Assembly: GCA_963923765.1 (NCBI GenBank)
Contig: CAWUOF010000044.1
Span: forward strand, 1 to 14,049
DNA from: an uncultured bacterium
GTDB taxonomy: Bacteria > Cyanobacteriota > Cyanobacteriia > Cyanobacteriales > CAWUOF01
Direction of reading: 5' to 3'
DNA: 14,049 bases
Shown here: in pieces, positions 90 through 10,506 of the stretch
Numbering within the stretch: position 1 is the first letter of the stretch
How the letters are laid out: each line of letters opens with the position of its first letter
Program-made: the position numbers and the translations under genes
Notes under the pieces: generated by a model
The model's input: the letters and a program-made list of their open reading frames with translations, nothing else
Databases searched by the model: none
What the model was told of the DNA's origin: nothing

Positions 90-1946
90 TTATTTCATAA
101 AATACCATAATTTAATAGTTTTATCCTTACTGCCACTAGCGATAATTTTACCACTAGAATCAATGGCAACAGCAGAAATAGAATTTAAATGACCTGCTAA
201 ACTAGCTATTTCTTTGCCTGTATTTATATCCCATAATTTGATAGTTTTATCCCAACTACCACTAACTAAATTTTCGCTATTAGGAGTAAAAGCGAGTGCT
301 ACAACTGACCAGGAATGACCTAAAATTGTCGAAATATTCTCTCCGGTTTTTATATCCCATAATTTGATAGTTTTATCATCGCTACCACTAGCTAAAATGT
401 TGCCATCGGGACTAAAAGTAACTACAAAAACCGACCATAAATGACTAATAAAAGTATAGTGCAACTGCGGGCGAAATTCTGGGGAAAATCGCTTTAAATC
501 CCACAAACGAATAGATCTATCAAAGCTTGCACTAGCTAGAAAATTACCACAGGGACTAAATGCAACACAAGTTATTTGCAAACTATGACCGGTTAAAGTA
601 TAAATTTCTTTACCTGTATTTACATCCCATAATTTGATGGTTTTATCCCAACTACCACTAGCTAAAAGTTTACCATCGGGGCTAAAAGCTATAGATTTAA
701 CTGCCTGTAAATGTCCGCTAAGAGTATATATTTCTTGTTGAAGATTCCATAGTTTTATAGTTTTATCATCGCTACAGGAGGCTAATATATTACCATCAGG
801 ATTAAATGCTACACAGTTAATCCTATGGGAATGACCAGTGAGAATATTATTAATTGTTCCTGTTTCTATATTCCACAGGTAAATATTTTTGTCTTCGCTA
901 CCACTAGCCAGGATATTATCTTTAATGGCTATAGTATTAATATTAGATAATACTCCAGCAGGATTGGTAAGGGTTTTTAGGCATTGCCATTGTAAAGGAG
1001 GAATAGGGCTTTTTAGAGTTAGGTTTTTTGGCTGGTGTTTAATTTGAATGCCGAATTTCTGCATAGTTTCTAAGACTTCATCAGCCGATCGAAATCTACG
1101 ATTAAGGGCATTTTGTAATAATTTATCTAAAATTTCTCCTAAATTATTACTAACTTTATTTATGGTATAATCTCGCCATGCCCAGCAATCGTTAATAGCA
1201 TCAAATAAATCAAAAGGGGGAATACCTGTTAATAAATAAATACAGGTGACACCTAAACTATATAGATCGCTGGCAAAAACGGCTTTTCCCTTGGTTTGTT
1301 CCGGGGCTATATATTCAGGACTACCAATGCTAGTTCCGGTTTGAATTGGGGTATTTTCTGTTACTAATTTAGCTGCACCAAAATCAATTATGACAAATTG
1401 ATTAGAGGCTTCTGGGTTTTCTATGATATTTCTACGAATAATATTTTTAGGTTTAATATCTCTATGAATTATTTGATGTTGGTGAATAAATTTTAATACT
1501 GGTAATATTTCTGTTAAAAGTTGCCAAATTTGGGTTTCATTAAATGTACCTTCTTCCTCTAAAATTTGATTTAAATTCATTCCTTCTATATATTCTTGTA
1601 CTAAATAAAGATTTTCATGTTCAGTAAAATGTGTGATTAAATTAGGAATTTGGGGATGTGGGTTTAGTTGTTGTAGAAGTATTGCTTCTTGTTGAAATAT
1701 TTGTTGGGCTTTTGGTGCTGTTTCTGGGGTAAGATTTTGCGAGGAAAATTGTTTAATTATGCAGGAAAATGCAGGAGATTGACTTTCATCTAATGCGATA
1801 AATGTGCGATTCATTCCGCCTCGATCGATTAATTGAAGCGGGCGAAAACGTTGCTGTAGAAGTAAAGGAAAACCGCAAAAATGACAAATTTGATTTGTAT
1901 CGGGATTTTGCGGTTTTTGACATTCTGGATTAAGGCAATAGGTCAT
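90..1946 (-). CDS. Serine/threonine protein kinase with an N-terminal Cys-rich zinc-ribbon-like segment and a C-terminal seven-repeat WD40 beta-propeller
   Basis: 618-aa ORF. Seen in translation: Hanks kinase motifs HRDIKPKNI (catalytic loop), DFG, APE and a VAIK-type lysine in CIIKQF. The N-terminus CLNPECQ...CHFCG has four Cys spaced like a zinc ribbon. The C-terminal half has seven units of the form GH..x..(S/N)PDG.iLASGS.DKTIKLWD. Established knowledge: this kinase-WD40 architecture is common in filamentous and unicellular cyanobacteria. The Gly-rich loop is degenerate (DRGGMN instead of GxGxxG). Confidence 0.9.
   Translation of the reverse strand: MTYCLNPECQKPQNPDTNQICHFCGFPLLLQQRFRPLQLIDRGGMNRTFIALDESQSPAFSCIIKQFSSQNLTPETAPKAQQIFQQEAILLQQLNPHPQIPNLITHFTEHENLYLVQEYIEGMNLNQILEEEGTFNETQIWQLLTEILPVLKFIHQHQIIHRDIKPKNIIRRNIIENPEASNQFVIIDFGAAKLVTENTPIQTGTSIGSPEYIAPEQTKGKAVFASDLYSLGVTCIYLLTGIPPFDLFDAINDCWAWRDYTINKVSNNLGEILDKLLQNALNRRFRSADEVLETMQKFGIQIKHQPKNLTLKSPIPPLQWQCLKTLTNPAGVLSNINTIAIKDNILASGSEDKNIYLWNIETGTINNILTGHSHRINCVAFNPDGNILASCSDDKTIKLWNLQQEIYTLSGHLQAVKSIAFSPDGKLLASGSWDKTIKLWDVNTGKEIYTLTGHSLQITCVAFSPCGNFLASASFDRSIRLWDLKRFSPEFRPQLHYTFISHLWSVFVVTFSPDGNILASGSDDKTIKLWDIKTGENISTILGHSWSVVALAFTPNSENLVSGSWDKTIKLWDINTGKEIASLAGHLNSISAVAIDSSGKIIASGSKDKTIKLWYFMK
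225..647. repeat. Intragenic direct repeats within the WD40 kinase gene: an identical 27-mer tatatcccataatttgatagttttatc at 225-251 and 351-377, plus a 2-mismatch copy at 621-647
   Basis: Seen directly in the sequence. The repeats correspond to the reverse complement of the codons for the conserved DKTIKLWDI blade motif of consecutive WD40 repeats. Confidence 0.8.
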
Positions 1947-2049: not shown

Positions 2050-4161
2050 TTATTTTCTATTAGCTAAATTATTATTTTCTGTAACAAATTCAGCAGTTAT
2101 CGGCGATGAATTTTCCAGAGCAGATGTTGATAATTCTTGTGGATTATTTGGCGTTTGATTTTGGGAATTTATAGGCATTTGTTTGCCGGTTTGATTCCAT
2201 AAAATCATGGTTAATAACCCATCAACTAAGCTGTTACTGCTGCCATTGTTACCACCGACTAATATATCGGGAATTAAGCGCACATGACGATCGCCTATTA
2301 TCTGCATTAATTGCATAGCTGTATAACTTTGTGCGCCCAAGGCTTCCACACCATTTTTATAGGTTTCTGCCTTAGCATTACCAGTAGCGCGAATAGCATC
2401 AGCTTCGGCAACGGCTTGTAATTTAGTAGCTTGGGCTTGACCTTCTGCTTGTTTAATTTGTGCTTTAGCTTTTAAGTCGGCAATGTTAACATTTTGCTCA
2501 TTTTTTACCATTTCTTGTTGAATATCAGCCAAGGAAGTTTCTCTTACTAATAGCTGCCTTTGTTGCTGTGCCATTTGCTGCACTTCATAGGTTTTACGCT
2601 GTTCTTCAGCTATTTTGCGATCGGTCTGGGTTTGCATTAGTTGGGATGGCGGTTGAATATCACCAATTAAAGTATCGATCGCCTGCACATCATAGGCACG
2701 CAAAGCTGTTTTAATATACTCAGCGGCTTCTGCTTGTCTCTCACTCCTAGCACTGAGGAAATCTAACACGGTATAATCTTGAGAAGAATTGCGGAAATAA
2801 TTACCTATAGTTGGTTCTAAAACATGATCTACTAAGTTTTGCATTAAACCAACACGAGATATTACTTTTGGTGCATCTAAAGCGCCGACATGGATAATTT
2901 GTGCTACTTCTAAATCAAAGGCAAAACCATCTTTTGACCGTACCGTTAACGAGGCAAGTTTAGAGTCATAATTATGTCTTTCTGTGCGGGCAGACCAGTT
3001 AAGAACTATATTAGTTGTTGGTACTAATTCAACTTTCATTACACGGGTATTAATAGGATGTTTACCGGGATAAAGTGGCTCATTCCATACACCTTTATGT
3101 CCGGGTTTAACCAAATCTCCATGAGTGAAAGCAGCGCCGCTAATATCTTCATGGGCTTTACCAACATAAGAAATAACTACACCCACATAACCAATGGGAA
3201 TTTCAGTCATATTGACTTGTTCAACTTGCACAAACCAAGGGTTAAGATTCCAAGACCCGGAAAGTAACACTTGTTCTTGTAAACCTCGTCTACCTCCACC
3301 GCTAATAAATTTCTGTCCGTTTTGAAAGTTTTCGTGACCAGAAATAACCGGACCTGCAATTTCTCCATCTTCAATAGGCATCCCGTCTAAAGTGGTAACA
3401 ATACCAACTTTATCGGAATCAACAGAATAAATATGTAATTTATCAGCAGCAATGCCATTTTTATTAGCATTACTAGCAGTAATTACCGTAAATAATGCCG
3501 TATTAATCCGATAACTTCCAGCCGTCAAAAATCCCATTTGCCGACCTTTTTCACCCCCATGAGTTAAAAAATTTCTGGCATTTTGGAAGTTATCGCATTC
3601 TACTACTTTGCCAAGAATTCTTTCTGGGGGAATTGATGCACCATCGGCGGCGACAATTAGGGCTATTTGTCCTTGGGGAATAACAATTACTGATTCTTTG
3701 CGGACTTCATATTGCCAAGGCCAAAAGCCCCAATGCCAGCCAGGGGCGAGGGTATCTGCTTGATAGCCGGCTTCCCCATGAAGGGCAATTAAACGACCGG
3801 GAGGTAAACTATTTTTAGCGAATTTTTTAGCAACTATACCAACTTCTCTTTCACCGATAATAACTAAACCGGAGGTAAAGCCAATTATACCTATTCCACC
3901 CAGAAAAATTATTGGCACAATTAACCAAATAAATCCGCCTATTTCCATTAATTGATAGTTTACTTGAGCAAGGTTTTTTGGCGTATTATCAGGGTTAATT
4001 TGATTGTAATTAAGGCTTATAGCTGTGGTTTCGTTAATATTGTAATTTTGGGAGTTATTAGCATTAGCACCAGGAGAAGTAATAGAGGCGATCGCTAAAC
4101 TTGCTGCTACTGAAGCTACTAACCATTGGGGCTTTTTCAGTAGTTTTTTAAAAATTTTCAT
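2050..4161 (-). CDS. Flotillin-like SPFH/band-7 family membrane protein (YqiK/FloT-like) with an extended N-terminal region
   Basis: 703-aa ORF. Seen: an N-terminal hydrophobic signal-like segment (WLVASVAASLAIASI), an Asn/Gln-rich linker, then a TM helix (FIWLIVPIIFLGGIGIIGF) followed by an SPFH-like core (EREVGIVAKKF...). The C-terminal half is a long Ala/Gln/Glu-rich coiled-coil (AEEQRKTYEVQQMAQQQRQLL...AKAQIKQAEGQAQATKLQAVAEADAIRATGNAKAE) and ends ...IPDILVGGNNGSS, which resembles the flotillin C-terminus. The SPFH region looks roughly twice the usual length and may be two tandem SPFH-like segments (inference). Confidence 0.85.
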   Translation of the reverse strand: MKIFKKLLKKPQWLVASVAASLAIASITSPGANANNSQNYNINETTAISLNYNQINPDNTPKNLAQVNYQLMEIGGFIWLIVPIIFLGGIGIIGFTSGLVIIGEREVGIVAKKFAKNSLPPGRLIALHGEAGYQADTLAPGWHWGFWPWQYEVRKESVIVIPQGQIALIVAADGASIPPERILGKVVECDNFQNARNFLTHGGEKGRQMGFLTAGSYRINTALFTVITASNANKNGIAADKLHIYSVDSDKVGIVTTLDGMPIEDGEIAGPVISGHENFQNGQKFISGGGRRGLQEQVLLSGSWNLNPWFVQVEQVNMTEIPIGYVGVVISYVGKAHEDISGAAFTHGDLVKPGHKGVWNEPLYPGKHPINTRVMKVELVPTTNIVLNWSARTERHNYDSKLASLTVRSKDGFAFDLEVAQIIHVGALDAPKVISRVGLMQNLVDHVLEPTIGNYFRNSSQDYTVLDFLSARSERQAEAAEYIKTALRAYDVQAIDTLIGDIQPPSQLMQTQTDRKIAEEQRKTYEVQQMAQQQRQLLVRETSLADIQQEMVKNEQNVNIADLKAKAQIKQAEGQAQATKLQAVAEADAIRATGNAKAETYKNGVEALGAQSYTAMQLMQIIGDRHVRLIPDILVGGNNGSSNSLVDGLLTMILWNQTGKQMPINSQNQTPNNPQELSTSALENSSPITAEFVTENNNLANRK

Positions 4162-7262: not shown

Positions 7263-7847
7263 ATGAAATTAGAATCTTTACTAAGACTAAATAGAGTAAT
7301 TCGAGCGATCGGCTTTGATGATGTACCATTTAAACGTCGTCGAGGTAGTAATGTACCAATTGCTGGTGTAATTTGTGCCGATACTCGTTTTGAAGGTATG
7401 GTATGGGGAAAAATACGCCAAGATGGATGGAATGCTACAGATGTTATTTGTAATTTACTTTTACCTAGCAAATTTTTACCCCAATTAGATATAGTTTTAC
7501 TTGACGGTATTTCTGTAGGCGGTTTAAATATTATAGATTTACCCCAATTGTGCGATCGTCTCGAAATTCCCTGTGTTGCTGTTATGAGACGCATTCCCGA
7601 TATTACCGCCATGACTACAGTAATTAACCGCTTACCCCAAGCCAAAAAACGCTTAAAAATACTACAACGCGCAGGAATTATTCACGCCTATCCCCCCTTC
7701 TTTTTTCAAGTTTGCGGAGAAACTCCCGATATCATAGCAGCTACTTTACAGCGTCTTACTGATTGTGGTAATGTGCCAGAATCATTACGTTTAGCCCATT
7801 TAATTGGTGCAGCAGTAGTGAAAGGAGAAAGCGGCAGACAAGCATAA
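7263..7847 (+). CDS. DUF99/UPF0215 family protein (archaeal-type; the family is annotated as endonuclease dU-like)
   Basis: 194-aa ORF. Seen: an N-terminal IGFDDVPF (the family's GxDD motif), then VICADTRFEGMVWGKIRQDGWNATDVI (DG.DaT) and IVLLDGISVGGLNIIDL (mLDGi..aGfN.vD). This is as I recall the DUF99 consensus. The call is from memory of the family and is unverified. Confidence 0.6.
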   Translation: MKLESLLRLNRVIRAIGFDDVPFKRRRGSNVPIAGVICADTRFEGMVWGKIRQDGWNATDVICNLLLPSKFLPQLDIVLLDGISVGGLNIIDLPQLCDRLEIPCVAVMRRIPDITAMTTVINRLPQAKKRLKILQRAGIIHAYPPFFFQVCGETPDIIAATLQRLTDCGNVPESLRLAHLIGAAVVKGESGRQA

Positions 7848-8000: not shown

Positions 8001-8582
8001 TCAAGTTAAATTAGCAACGGTTTTGATTAATTCATCGCGAGATAATTGCATAATTAATTTAACGCTTTCTTTTTGGGATATTTGCATTAAAGGTTGTATA
8101 ATTTGGTATAATTCCTGATCAATTTTTCCAAATCTTATTCTTATAATGTTTTCGATGTTTATCGGTGGAAGATCATCCAAAGCTAATAAAAATTTCTCGG
8201 AACCAGTATAAATATCTTCTAAACAGAGGAGGTGATAAACAAAAATACCCTCCTCTATTCTGGGATAGCTTTTAAGGCGAGGCAAAAATTTTGAATTGTA
8301 ACCAACACCAGCCAGCATAATTCCTATTTGAGATTTTGATTTCTCTAAGCCAGCATAGAATTCATCAGCATATTTAGAGCCTAAAGACTCTTGCGAAAGT
8401 TTGCATTGGAAATAAATCAAACGGTCTGCAACTGTACCATAACCATCAATAAGATCATCAGCGCCAGACTTTCCGGGCGTTAATCCTAGCATGATAGCAT
8501 AGGCTTGTCCATCACGTTGTTTAGTAGCAGAATTGGCGCGGGTTTTACTATTAATTATGGCTCGCAACTGCATTGCATCCAT
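8001..8582 (-). CDS. Standalone Mrr-type (Mrr_cat) PD-(D/E)xK restriction-endonuclease-fold protein with no N-terminal DNA-binding domain
   Basis: 193-aa ORF. Seen: GADDLIDGYGTVADRLIYFQCK matches the Mrr catalytic core (G-D-x-G-I-D-x ... v-Q-c-K, with Q in place of E as in Mrr itself). It is followed by SQIGIMLAGVGYNSKF...EEGIFVYHLL, which corresponds to the Mrr_cat distal strands (gilvttsgFs...i.lidg). Only about 35 residues precede the nuclease core, so there is no winged-helix N-domain. The start is 7 nt after the stop of the upstream RHH gene, which suggests translational coupling. Confidence 0.7.
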   Translation of the reverse strand: MDAMQLRAIINSKTRANSATKQRDGQAYAIMLGLTPGKSGADDLIDGYGTVADRLIYFQCKLSQESLGSKYADEFYAGLEKSKSQIGIMLAGVGYNSKFLPRLKSYPRIEEGIFVYHLLCLEDIYTGSEKFLLALDDLPPINIENIIRIRFGKIDQELYQIIQPLMQISQKESVKLIMQLSRDELIKTVANLT

Positions 8583-8589
8583 TCTACTA

Positions 8590-9069
8590 CTACCCTACTT
8601 TATTCATTTCGATCAATCGTAAATAGAAAATTTCTACTCCTAGAATTGCAATTTTAGAAACATCACAGAGTAAATTTTGGTTTTCGAGTTCATCAAAAAT
8701 TTTTTGACTCAACTCAAGTTTTAGTGTCGTACAATCATCGTCAGAATTTATTTCTTTTGGATAACCCTTAAGACTTTGAATTTTAATTTCTTTGTCTTTA
8801 GCGTAATTGATAACATAGTTAATCGCACTATGCAATATGTTATCAGTAGACAATGCTAAATAATTATTGAGATTTCTAAATTTTGCTTGCATTGAGAGAG
8901 GAATTGTCATAGATACAACTGTTTCTGTATTTTCGCCATTAGCTGCACGATTTTCACGATGTTGCTCAACGATGTTATGTGCTCTTTGGCTAACGCCGTT
9001 AGTTGCTTTATTTAGATGCTCAGTCGCAGCTATGGATGAGTTGACTGGATTTTGATGTTGACTAGACAT
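8590..9069 (-). CDS. Ribbon-helix-helix (CopG/Arc/ParG-like) DNA-binding protein with a disordered N-terminal tail and a roughly 65-aa C-terminal extension
   Basis: 159-aa ORF. A GGAGG Shine-Dalgarno lies 11 nt upstream of the ATG, and the start is 21 nt after the ParA-like stop. Seen: an N-terminal polar, low-complexity 50 aa, then a beta-strand VVSMTIPLS, helix-1 MQAKFRNLNNYLA and helix-2 STDNILHSAINYVINYA. This is the RHH fold pattern by inference; I recognize no named family. The C-terminal extension (KEIKIQSLKG...LLCDVSKIAILGVEIFYLRLIEMNKVG) is not part of classical ParG or omega proteins. Confidence 0.55.
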   Translation of the reverse strand: MSSQHQNPVNSSIAATEHLNKATNGVSQRAHNIVEQHRENRAANGENTETVVSMTIPLSMQAKFRNLNNYLALSTDNILHSAINYVINYAKDKEIKIQSLKGYPKEINSDDDCTTLKLELSQKIFDELENQNLLCDVSKIAILGVEIFYLRLIEMNKVG

Positions 9070-9090
9070 AACCTATTTAACCTCCGGAAT

Positions 9091-9780
9091 TTACTCCTTA
9101 ATTAAATCAATAAAATAAGTTTTTGTATTTTCTAAATTTGCATATTTCCAAATGTATTTTTTTTCTTTCAAAGATTTTCGTGTTTCTGCGGCTAGAGATT
9201 GCATTGGTGTACAAATTTCAACTTGAATAGAAAAATTATCAATATTCAACTCATTCTCTATTTCCTCACTGCTAAGTCCCAAAGGTACAACTTTTATAAT
9301 TGGGTTGTAATAAATACTAGTTAATTGCTGAAATTTAATTTCACGTTCCAAATCACTAATAAAAACAGAAATATCTTCAATGGCATGAGACTGTGACTCA
9401 GAAATTGGTACTAGAAAAATATTGGGTAGAGAGTCACTTAGAATCGTAAGAGCATCTTCCGGCGGACTATCTGCATCAATAACGACATAATCATACAATT
9501 CCCAGTCTCGTTTAGTTATGGGTTTAAATCGAGAACCTTTAGATTGTGGTGGATTCCAGCGCAAATCAATATTATTCGGAAGAGATAACTCTTTTTGAGG
9601 GATATCTGGCCTTGAACCACTAAAAAATTTCCAAGAATCTGGTCGAGGATCGCAATCCACGAGCAAAATTTTTCTGATAGTTTGCTCATTAAGGATACCT
9701 GCAATATGAACAGCAAGAGTTGTTTTCCCTGCTCCTCCTTTGATGTAATTGCATAAGATAACACGAGTTTTCCTAGTCAT
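9091..9780 (-). CDS. ParA/MinD/Soj-superfamily deviant Walker A ATPase (small type-Ib ParF-like size, no N-terminal HTH)
   Basis: 229-aa ORF. Seen: deviant Walker A KGGAGKTT within NYIKGGAGKTTLAVHIA, an A' motif KILLVDCDPR, a Walker B YDYVVIDADSPP, then ALTILSDSLPNIFLVPISESQSHAIEDIS, which matches the ParA hydrophobic core. It is the first gene of a three-gene minus-strand cluster. Confidence 0.85.
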   Translation of the reverse strand: MTRKTRVILCNYIKGGAGKTTLAVHIAGILNEQTIRKILLVDCDPRPDSWKFFSGSRPDIPQKELSLPNNIDLRWNPPQSKGSRFKPITKRDWELYDYVVIDADSPPEDALTILSDSLPNIFLVPISESQSHAIEDISVFISDLEREIKFQQLTSIYYNPIIKVVPLGLSSEEIENELNIDNFSIQVEICTPMQSLAAETRKSLKEKKYIWKYANLENTKTYFIDLIKE

Positions 9781-10240
9781 AGCTTTTATGATAATCCTAG
9801 TTGCTATTTAGACAATACCCCAGCTTAAAACTCAAAAAACGGATTTTTGGATATTCTGGTTAATTACATCTATTTGCATGATCATAACATACAGGGTAAA
9901 ACATAAAATGCTTATATAGCAATAATTTAAAGTATGATTGCTCTGTGATATAGCTAAGTGTTGTATTTTATTAATATAACACAAATTAACAAGATTTTGG
10001 TGAAAATCAAAAATAATCTTTCTATCGCCAGTATCGAGGGTGATAGTGAAAATACTTAACCCAAAAAAATAGTACAGATTGTTTTAGACTCAGAAATATT
10101 TTCTTGTCGAGACTTAGACGAATTTTCGTGGTAAATAGGGTTAAAAACCATACTAGGCAAGGAAAATACGTCAAACGGGTAAAAAAACTCAAACCCATAC
10201 CCATCAAGGTTTTAACTTTTTTCGAGGTAAAACCTATACC

Positions 10241-10280
10241 AAAAAAGGCTTTCAGCCTTTTTCCCATATTTTTTTTCTAA
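10241..10280. terminator. Bidirectional rho-independent terminator hairpin (9-bp perfect stem AAAAAGGCT/AGCCTTTTT, 3-nt loop) flanked by an A-run on the 5' side and a T-run on the 3' side
   Basis: Seen: aaaaaaggctTTCagcctttttcccatattttttttc. The stem is 10242-10250 paired with 10254-10262. A T-tract follows on the plus strand. Because the A-tract precedes the stem, the minus strand also reads stem plus T-tract. No annotated gene ends here on either strand. Confidence 0.5.
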
Positions 10281-10506
10281 GTCCCGCCAAAAAACTGCAA
10301 GATTATGACATTTGTATGTTCAATATCCTTGCACGTGGTTGGCGGGGTCAATTTTGAAATCCATCTCCAAATCTCTTATTTTGCATACTTTGTCACACCT
10401 CAATTCAATTTGTAGACTTATTCACCGAGTTCTATGTTATAATAATTTATAATAAATATAATAAAATTATATAATCAAATAATAATTACTACTATAAACA
10501 AAAACA

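Follow-up and report, generated by a model that had tools for sequence, protein, structure and literature searches.

The window analysed here, a 14,049-nt stretch of contig CAWUOF010000044.1 from an uncultured member of the Cyanobacteriales (assembly GCA_963923765.1), carries on its minus strand three closely packed genes that form a real conserved unit: a ParA/MinD-type ATPase (gene 1), a small protein that is probably an adaptor (gene 2) and a stand-alone nuclease core (gene 3). Sequence comparisons suggest that this three-gene module is a conflict system, serving anti-phage or anti-plasmid restriction or acting as a selfish addiction cassette, and is not devoted to replicon segregation, a reading to which we give about an even chance. 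The three genes are laid out as follows:

9091..9780, minus strand: gene 1, ParA/MinD-type deviant Walker-A ATPase, 229 aa (open reading frame and Pfam).
8590..9069, minus strand: gene 2, fast-evolving probable adaptor of 159 aa, with a tail and two ribbon-helix-helix (RHH)-like beta-alpha-alpha units (open reading frame and profile alignment).
8001..8582, minus strand: gene 3, stand-alone Mrr-like PD-(D/E)xK nuclease core, 193 aa (open reading frame and predicted model).

The coordinates of the open reading frames and the sequence agree with the initial annotation of this DNA, which had proposed three minus-strand genes with gaps of 21 and 7 nt: genes 1 and 2 are separated by 21 nt (9070-9090), with GGAGG preceding the ATG of gene 2, and genes 2 and 3 by 7 nt (TAG-tagtaga-ATG). 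They also agree with the type Ib layout that had been recognized there, in which a small ATPase without an N-terminal helix-turn-helix (HTH) domain is followed by a small gene, given that the two products have 229 and 159 aa and that the gap between their genes is 21 nt. The same contig was found in three metagenome assemblies, where the gene caller predicted the same three genes and left the 726-nt spacer upstream of gene 1 otherwise empty. The GC content of the window is about 34%, and the genes surrounding the trio are of cyanobacterial housekeeping type.

The distribution of the trio was scanned with one genome per GTDB species, which gave 24 gene-3 loci, all of them cyanobacterial (Nostocales, Oscillatoriales, Spirulina, Arthrospira and Prochloron among them); three of these (L010, L012 and L029) are cut by contig ends, leaving 21 that could be assessed. 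At 15 loci genes 1, 2 and 3 are intact and in the same order, with genes 2 and 3 mostly 1-9 nt apart, five loci hold decayed triads, and at a single one (L019) gene 3 is found solo in a rearranged region. A triad or its remnants thus occur at 20 of the 21 assessable loci, which answers in the affirmative the question of neighbourhood conservation raised by the initial annotation, and gene 3, at one locus in 21, does not routinely occur alone. The same three-gene order was seen in more than 25 independent loci; the plasmid copy, three Thiomargarita loci and loci from metagenomes share it, the last of these including further intact triads and a third subfamily (L045). At L019 (4763-5870, 7485-7715) three tandem XisI-family genes precede gene 3 and a duplicated 3' fragment of gene 3 lies about 1 kb downstream, indicating local rearrangement.

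Compared with the window proteins, members of the close subfamily are 61-68% (gene 1), 39-46% (gene 2) and 66-76% (gene 3) identical; in the distant subfamily the values drop to about 32% (gene 1) and 38-46% (gene 3). The ratio of nonsynonymous to synonymous substitution rates (dN/dS) was 0.1-0.5 for all three genes in most comparisons, with gene 2 the fastest, and all three genes are under purifying selection. The flanks of the module vary among lineages and are syntenic within close Nostocales relatives. One metagenome-assembled genome (MAG), CAKZKB01, has two divergent modules, one of the window type and one of the distant type (L011, 79-1770, and L015, 4709-6459). Being rare, patchily distributed and repeatedly decaying, the trio appears to be accessory and not housekeeping.

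Among the decayed triads, L017 has truncated genes 1 and 3, L031 has all three genes truncated, and L026 combines an intact gene 3 with a C-terminally truncated gene 2, no gene 1 being found upstream. In several cases gene 1 was lost independently while genes 2 and 3 stayed intact: in L018 (5384-5980, Spirulina) only an 18-aa stub of it is left, joined to gene 2; two Arthrospira assemblies, L025 (4765-5448) and L043 (6765-7448), share a split at one and the same point; and a 32-aa remnant survives in L044 (457-552, a Planktothrix-like contig). A further apparent disruption, of gene 2 in L038 (5288-5817, an Aphanizomenon draft genome), was rejected as a sequencing artefact, consisting of four +1 indels in A/T homopolymers relative to L037 (7480-8005).

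Repeated loss of gene 1 with retention of genes 2 and 3 (L018, L025/L043 and L044) would fit an addictive core, as expected if genes 1 and 2 were a type Ib segregation pair serving a replicon or an excisable element and gene 3 a post-segregational-killing nuclease, with gene 2 doubling as its antitoxin, a design like that of delta-omega-epsilon-zeta on inc18 plasmids. The order of genes 2 and 3 and their 1-9 nt gaps resemble an antitoxin-toxin pair, and an ATPase followed by a small, tailed, RHH-like protein is the type Ib order. However, an intact gene 3 is found beside a truncated gene 2 in L026 and solo in L019, and gene 2 has no obvious separate domain for neutralising a toxin; together with the genomic context described below, this leads us to regard such a combination of partition and addiction as unlikely.

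The closest view of how the products of genes 2 and 3 may be combined comes from a natural fusion. Four representative gene-3 relatives of 259-296 aa have a gene 2-like N-terminal half, with both RHH-like units, and a gene 3-like C-terminal half in which the catalytic residues are degraded (D replaced by S, E or N, and QxK by QxN or YxN). Two of the four (P0056 and P0083) are assigned to Thiomargarita MAGs. In the three loci examined (P0054, P0056 and P0083) a ParA-like gene (HNSGGVGKTT) is followed by the fusion and then by an intact gene 3 of about 150 aa, the frames overlapping or abutting. The variant modules lie at these positions:

L033, 500-2478: variant module in a Thiomargarita MAG.
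L034, 54-2103: variant module.
L035, 8337-10272: variant module in a Thiomargarita MAG.
L036, 3282-5217: variant module in a Thiomargarita MAG.

In L035 and L036 the module immediately follows a gene for a C5 DNA methyltransferase and one for an NgoFVII-like restriction enzyme, and the Thiomargarita variants suggest gene exchange between cyanobacteria and Beggiatoaceae. Because a gene 2::gene 3-like fusion is followed by an intact gene 3, gene 2 would pair physically with a gene 3 dimer. We consider this strong comparative evidence that the products of genes 2 and 3 interact physically and that gene 3 works as a dimer, the Thiomargarita variant being a putative heterodimer of pseudo-nuclease and nuclease tethered to the adaptor. 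The fusion of pseudo-nuclease and adaptor is thus a natural handle on the subunit architecture.

Gene 1 is a genuine ParA/MinD-type ATPase. The earlier call of a deviant-Walker ATPase stands, given the KGGAGKTT motif and the Pfam matches to AAA_31 (41.3 bits, cut-off 27) and CbiA (36.6 bits, cut-off 25.4). The protein also contains the aspartate motifs LLVDCD (switch) and VVIDAD (Walker B), matches the PHROG family 'ParA-like partition protein' (3e-11), and has MipZ and Soj as its closest relatives in the PDB (about 1e-6). Its P-loop is located as follows:

9718..9741, minus strand: Walker A motif of gene 1, K14-GGAGK-TT21, including the 'signature' lysine K14 at 9739-9741 (sequence).

In an alignment of 16 members of the gene-1 family the GG.GKT P-loop and the LL.DCD and hhhhD aspartate motifs are invariant. 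At the position of K14 the lysine is retained in the window subfamily and in a few others (L028, L030 and L032), and about half of the family has D, N, S or T instead (motifs such as HNDGGVGKTT), a replacement also seen in McdA of Synechococcus elongatus. Among 72,556 plasmids only one gene-1 relative was detected at E<1e-10, and this is the copy of the same module on a plasmid of S. elongatus UTEX 3055; because the only plasmid relative is itself part of such a module, the gene-1 subfamily appears to be essentially restricted to the three-gene module.

These data bear directly on whether the trio might be nothing more than a plain partition (par) locus carrying gene 3 as unrelated cargo, or genes brought together by chance. 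The order of a ParA gene and a small protein, taken alone, would be compatible with this. In contrast, the triad is kept across orders and into Gammaproteobacteria, gene 2 is found fused to a gene 3-like domain, the gene-1 subfamily is exclusive to the module and genes 2 and 3 are 1-9 nt apart in most loci, so that co-occurrence and fusion effectively refute the idea and leave it scarcely credible. The initial annotation had itself preferred something other than a plain par locus, in line with the absence of iterons, the mostly chromosomal location, the patchy distribution and the decaying copies; the par locus of a resident plasmid carrying gene 3 as cargo, which it named as the outcome that would overturn its proposal, does not agree with the varied chromosomal flanks, the exclusivity of the gene-1 subfamily or the gene 2::gene 3-like fusions.

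Gene 3 is predicted to be a competent-looking D...QxK cleavage module that lacks a DNA-recognition domain of its own. Two of its regions are of special relevance:

8400..8459, minus strand: predicted active site of gene 3, D42-D-L-I-D46-G ... Q59-C-K61 (alignment and model).
8004..8150, minus strand: C-terminal helical extension of gene 3, about 48 aa (aa ~145-193), in the window protein only (alignment and model).

The motifs GADDLIDG...YFQCK are present, and the gene-3 family alignment shows no variation at D46 and Q59 and at least 90% conservation at K61. The model of gene 3 has the alpha/beta core fold of restriction endonucleases, with the D...QxK residues on two adjacent central strands (44-51 and 54-61), and fold comparison gave values of 9.9 for AspBHI, 9.1 for LlaBIII, 9.1 for AF1548, 9.0 for MspJI, 8.6 for FokI, 8.4 for N.BspD6I and 8.0 for the small subunit of R.BspD6I. 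Because fold and active site match the modules of AspBHI, MspJI, LlaBIII, FokI and BspD6I, gene 3 is best viewed as a probable cleavage module; and as nothing but a pair of short helices (aa 3-31) comes before the core, with no Mrr_N winged-helix domain, it has no recognition domain. The Mrr_cat core assigned earlier therefore stands as regards the GADDLIDG...YFQCK motifs, the fold and the missing N-terminal winged helix, whereas the Pfam Mrr_cat match (PF04471) itself is only sub-threshold (12.9 bits, cut-off 21, E=0.13). Two relatives, P0020 and P0022, carry a precomputed PF04471 match, and searches with gene 3 of PADLOC, NCBIfam, PHROGs and PDB sequences found nothing. With both the fold and an Mrr-type D...QxK site, gene 3 is not the unrelated protein that would have spoken against the nuclease assignment.

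The gene-3 family comprises 24 clusters in the 90% database, where the NCBI name, if there is any, is 'restriction endonuclease', and 63 clusters at E<=1e-3 among 1.84 billion representative proteins. The norm of the family is about 150 aa (about 153), compared with 193 aa in the window protein, and the extension of about 48 aa is missing from the other 23 cluster representatives and from the 63 library relatives. AlphaFold2 (AF2) modelled this extension from the single sequence as four helices with a predicted local distance difference test score (pLDDT) of about 90; it has no Pfam match, and the possibility that it is a third RHH unit was rejected since no RHH similarity was found. In the distant subfamily the C-termini of gene 3 (e.g. 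L013, 6001-6468, and L021, 6001-6468) share a conserved ...(S/D)xxxW(A/S)x(Y/F/L)(K/R) motif, whose Trp is close to the terminus; the window subfamily has no such motif.

Gene 2 is the most divergent member of the trio, and that it consists of an N-terminal tail followed by tandem RHH-like units is a moderately supported inference from the following segments:

8926..9069, minus strand: N-terminal tail of gene 2, aa 1-48, with the motif NGVSQRA..I...NRE.R (close-orthologue alignment).
8794..8925, minus strand: RHH-like unit 1, aa 49-92, VVSMTIPLSMQAKFRNLNNYLALSTDNILHSAINYV (hhalign to CopG).
8605..8733, minus strand: RHH-like unit 2, aa 113-155, TLKLELSQKIFDELENQNLLCDVSKIAILGVEIFYLRL (hhalign to CopG).

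A word-indexed homologue search with gene 2 returned only the protein itself and a profile search five proteins, so orthologues were gathered by gene position. Positional orthologues were found at 21 of the 24 genome loci, with identities of 40-46% or less. They are 144-180 aa long and follow the same plan, that is, a tail with a conserved motif, a beta-alpha-alpha unit, a variable linker and a second beta-alpha-alpha unit; NGVSQRA..I...NRE.R is invariant in the three close orthologues of the window subfamily.

When sub-profiles of 24 gene-2 sequences were compared by hhalign with CopG, using 40 shuffles as control and a CopG sequence entered by hand, unit 1 aligned in register from the strand to the second helix with a probability of 77% (P=2.1e-5) and unit 2 likewise with a probability of 18% (P=1.3e-3), none of the 40 shuffles scoring as high in either case. 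The hhalign alignments of gene 2 to Arc and ParG are in register, yet within shuffle noise, no alignment was obtained to Mnt or omega, and the comparison of unit 1 with unit 2 was not significant. Gene 2 has no Pfam, NCBIfam or PDB match, and a Pfam scan of 16 gene-2 orthologues and 10 excised RHH-like fragments detected no RHH family, ParG and Omega included; a PDB profile search returned armadillo and ACC matches only, which were judged spurious. The RHH call of the initial annotation is thus backed by the in-register alignment to CopG, but not by Pfam, NCBIfam or the PDB, nor by the AF2 model with its pLDDT of 40. The extra C-terminal domain of about 65 aa that had been described does exist as a region; because unit 2 also aligns in register with CopG, it looks instead like a second RHH-like unit.

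On this basis a working scheme can be proposed. Gene 3 would be a minimal, probably dimeric cleavage module of the Mrr/FokI type with an intact D...QxK site. The two RHH-like units of gene 2 would probably form a single-chain RHH domain, responsible for DNA recognition and for autoregulation of the operon, and gene 2 would contact gene 3 directly and position or restrain its dimer. N-terminal tails act on the partner ATPases in ParG and omega, and by analogy the tail of gene 2 would probably engage or stimulate the gene 1 ATPase. The ATP switch of gene 1, through ATP-dependent dimerisation and non-specific DNA binding as in its relatives, would probably gate when and where the nuclease formed by genes 2 and 3 acts. 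DNA targeting in trans by gene 2 and gating by the ATPase, both put forward in the initial annotation, are compatible with the data and are best regarded as inferred. In its most specific form the scheme holds that an exapted ParA and a single-chain tandem-RHH adaptor license an Mrr-like nuclease against foreign or mis-segregated DNA, in a 'ParA-guarded restriction' that has no methyltransferase, is confined to filamentous cyanobacteria and Thiomargarita and has been exchanged between them; we put this forward tentatively, as something that may well prove otherwise.

The genomic context was inspected for signs of partition, mobility and defence. The region upstream of gene 1 is the following:

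9781..10506, no strand assigned: AT-rich spacer of 726 nt between gene 1 and a divergent Crp-family gene, presumed to hold the promoter/operator (repeat, promoter and Rfam searches).

A repeat search of 9781-10506 found only short repeats in two copies and no iteron array, promoter-like sites are no commoner there than in the background, and the whole window has no Rfam match. Within the spacer lie an inverted repeat of 24 nt that is imperfect (10283-10346) and, on the plus strand, a hairpin resembling a terminator (10242-10262). Upstream of 15 orthologous loci no repeat family exceeds two copies, downstream and intragenic regions not having been searched exhaustively, and no motif is common to the window and the orthologous upstream regions. 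In L007 (Phormidium yuhuli) only 46 nt lie upstream of gene 1.

Copies of the module were found on chromosomes of 4.7, 5.4, 6.07 and 6.1 Mb, and nearly all copies are chromosomal. The sole plasmid copy is L032, 1100-8042 (89-kb plasmid NZ_CP033062 of S. elongatus UTEX 3055), where the module is flanked by an Abi-family gene and a fragment of a type I restriction enzyme; just upstream there is a second ParA locus, a tyrosine recombinase and a RelE/ParE toxin-antitoxin pair. UTEX 3055, the host of this copy, is genetically tractable. A copy on an 89-kb plasmid is what a segregation pair with a killing nuclease would lead one to expect; nevertheless that plasmid has another ParA locus, nearly all other copies are on chromosomes, no iteron or centromere arrays lie beside the module (the 46 nt in L007 leave little upstream sequence), and gene 1 reaches only 35.9 bits against the NCBIfam ParA_partition equivalog, far from its cut-off of 180. 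Because there are no centromere repeats and the module is chromosomal, rare, patchy and decaying, with two modules in one MAG, we favour an accessory or selfish cassette over replicon segregation.

Another way to account for the pairing of a Par-like ATPase and an RHH-like protein with a nuclease is site-specific DNA processing, in which the pair would direct gene 3 to a locus for excision, mobilisation, homing or rearrangement. There is a precedent for a Par-like pair that aids a DNA-cleaving enzyme in VirC1/VirC2 (PMC8406263). Two RHH-like units are predicted in the single chain of gene 2, and XisI genes adjoin two of the module loci. Nevertheless, XisI genes are abundant in cyanobacteria, no relaxase, type IV secretion system (T4SS) or integrase is consistently present among the neighbouring genes, no conserved target-like repeats flank the module, and the match of gene 1 to Pfam VirC1 reaches 12.4 bits with a cut-off of 24; we therefore consider this explanation improbable.

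As for defence, restriction-modification (R-M) genes adjoin the module in Thiomargarita and an Abi gene does so in S. elongatus, which bears on the defence-island location considered in the initial annotation, whereas most flanks are housekeeping. A DndD/PbeC-like ATPase is encoded near the module in Phormidium yuhuli. A gene 2 match to JetC in PADLOC (E=0.024) was dismissed as spurious.

Several observations weigh against reading the module as a defence or addiction system, or against the scheme proposed for it. Genes 1 and 3 have no match in PADLOC-DB v2.0.0, and gene 3 has no copies in the phages and viral contigs searched. About 10 of 134 neighbour genes match PADLOC defence models, most neighbours being housekeeping and the commonest Pfam families ordinary, so that an enrichment of defence islands around the module is not clear. 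In ADA-clade Nostocales the module occupies a syntenic housekeeping position, which points to a long history of vertical inheritance. Across loci there is no consistently linked methyltransferase that would account for the sparing of self-DNA. Gene 1 may be dispensable, as genes 2 and 3 persist in several genomes that have no intact copy of it, and the canonical ParA sandwich-dimer cycle may not apply family-wide, as about half of the gene-1 family has lost the signature lysine. The RHH assignment of gene 2, for which there is modest profile evidence, is the weakest element and makes the fold a tentative one; the AF2 model, built from a five-sequence alignment, was unusable.

Some of the same facts could be read as nucleoid housekeeping in large polyploid cells, with a ParA-positioned nuclease engaged in management of chromosome copies, DNA turnover or repair. 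The module is hosted by filamentous cyanobacteria and giant sulfur bacteria, groups known to be polyploid, many flanks are housekeeping, the position is syntenic in ADA-clade Nostocales, and the genes are under purifying selection. On the other hand, the family is sparse (24 species representatives, 63 clusters worldwide), modules are repeatedly pseudogenised and occur as paralogues in one genome, and they adjoin an Abi gene on the plasmid and an R-M system in Thiomargarita, all of which makes this role very unlikely.

In the window itself the neighbours of the module are an Endo_dU/DUF99 protein (7263-7847, plus strand), a 703-aa Band_7/SPFH protein (2050-4161, minus strand) and a Ser/Thr kinase-WD40 protein (90-1946, minus strand), none of which recurs beside the module in other genomes.

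If the module is indeed a defence or addiction system, it would represent a new kind of nuclease control, exerted by an ATP-switch ParA and not by an SMC, AAA+, STAND or helicase partner, and, after VirC1/VirC2, another case of exapted partition machinery. The three-gene cassette would also be compact and testable in cyanobacteria, whose genetic tractability and bloom-phage ecology are influenced by defence content. DNA management in polyploid giant cells, if that were the true role, would also be new biology.

Comparison with known systems places the module close to, and apart from, several established designs. With the type Ib pairs ParF/ParG (TP228) and delta/omega (pSM19035) it shares a small deviant Walker-A ATPase without HTH, tight operon coupling and a small downstream protein with a flexible N-terminal tail and an RHH-like part. 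Unlike them it adds an obligatory third gene, for a nuclease, and its gene 2 is about twice the size of ParG or omega with two RHH-like units per chain. Moreover, no iteron centromere was found for it, it is mostly chromosomal, patchy and decaying, half of the gene-1 family is without the signature lysine and the ParA_partition score is far under the cut-off.

The inc18 maintenance region delta-omega-epsilon-zeta likewise brings a ParA ATPase and an RHH regulator together with a toxic effector. In that region, however, the toxin is a kinase that has an antitoxin of its own, and the genes form two transcription units on a plasmid, whereas the module is a single chromosomal operon with a nuclease effector and no separate antitoxin. 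McdA/McdB resembles the module in that a cyanobacterial ParA-like ATPase, in some cases without the signature lysine, is paired with a small fast-evolving partner. Identity with this system was rejected, given that gene 2 ends in ...IEMNKVG without the invariant C-terminal Trp of McdB, there are no ccm genes in the window or in L001, and the PDB match to McdA covers the P-loop only (E=1.8e-3).

VirC2 and TraY have two RHH units in one chain, and the RHH fold of VirC2 is said to have been found by Lu et al. in 2009 to be built from one chain. In the Agrobacterium Ti plasmid, VirC1 and VirC2, a ParA/MinD-like ATPase and its RHH partner, assist a DNA-cleaving enzyme and have no role in segregation (PMC8406263). 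The gene for their nuclease, the HUH relaxase VirD2, lies elsewhere, and the enzyme is linked to a T4SS, whereas here a PD-(D/E)xK gene lies in the operon and no transfer genes are found among the module neighbours examined; the similarity of gene 1 to VirC1 is at P-loop level only (Pfam VirC1, E=0.1; PRK13849, E=0.09).

The cleavage modules of Mrr-type and type IIS/IV enzymes (AF1548, MspJI, AspBHI, LlaBIII, FokI and R.BspD6I) have the same fold and D...QxK site as gene 3 and, like it, rely on recognition by another domain or subunit; the inactive copy on the adaptor and the active small subunit in Thiomargarita recall the large and small subunits of BspD6I. Gene 3 differs from them in being a stand-alone protein of about 150 aa without SRA, winged-helix or helicase domain, partnered with a ParA-type ATPase and an RHH-like protein, with no methyltransferase linked. 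MinD/ParA-like domains have been reported from conflict systems of multicellular bacteria, where they serve as inactive effector domains within other architectures (Kaur et al. 2020, PMC7159879).

No named system for this gene combination was found in PADLOC v2, PHROGs or the full-text literature, and there is no NCBIfam model for gene 2 or gene 3. ParA/MinD ATPases are positioning motors for DNA and protein cargo, and restriction and immune enzymes use stand-alone Mrr/FokI-type cleavage modules as their effector halves; to our knowledge, an obligate and conserved partnership of the two, bridged by an RHH-like protein, has not been described previously. Each part thus belongs to a known superfamily and the pairing of an ATPase with an RHH protein is a known design, whereas the three-part combination appears to be new.

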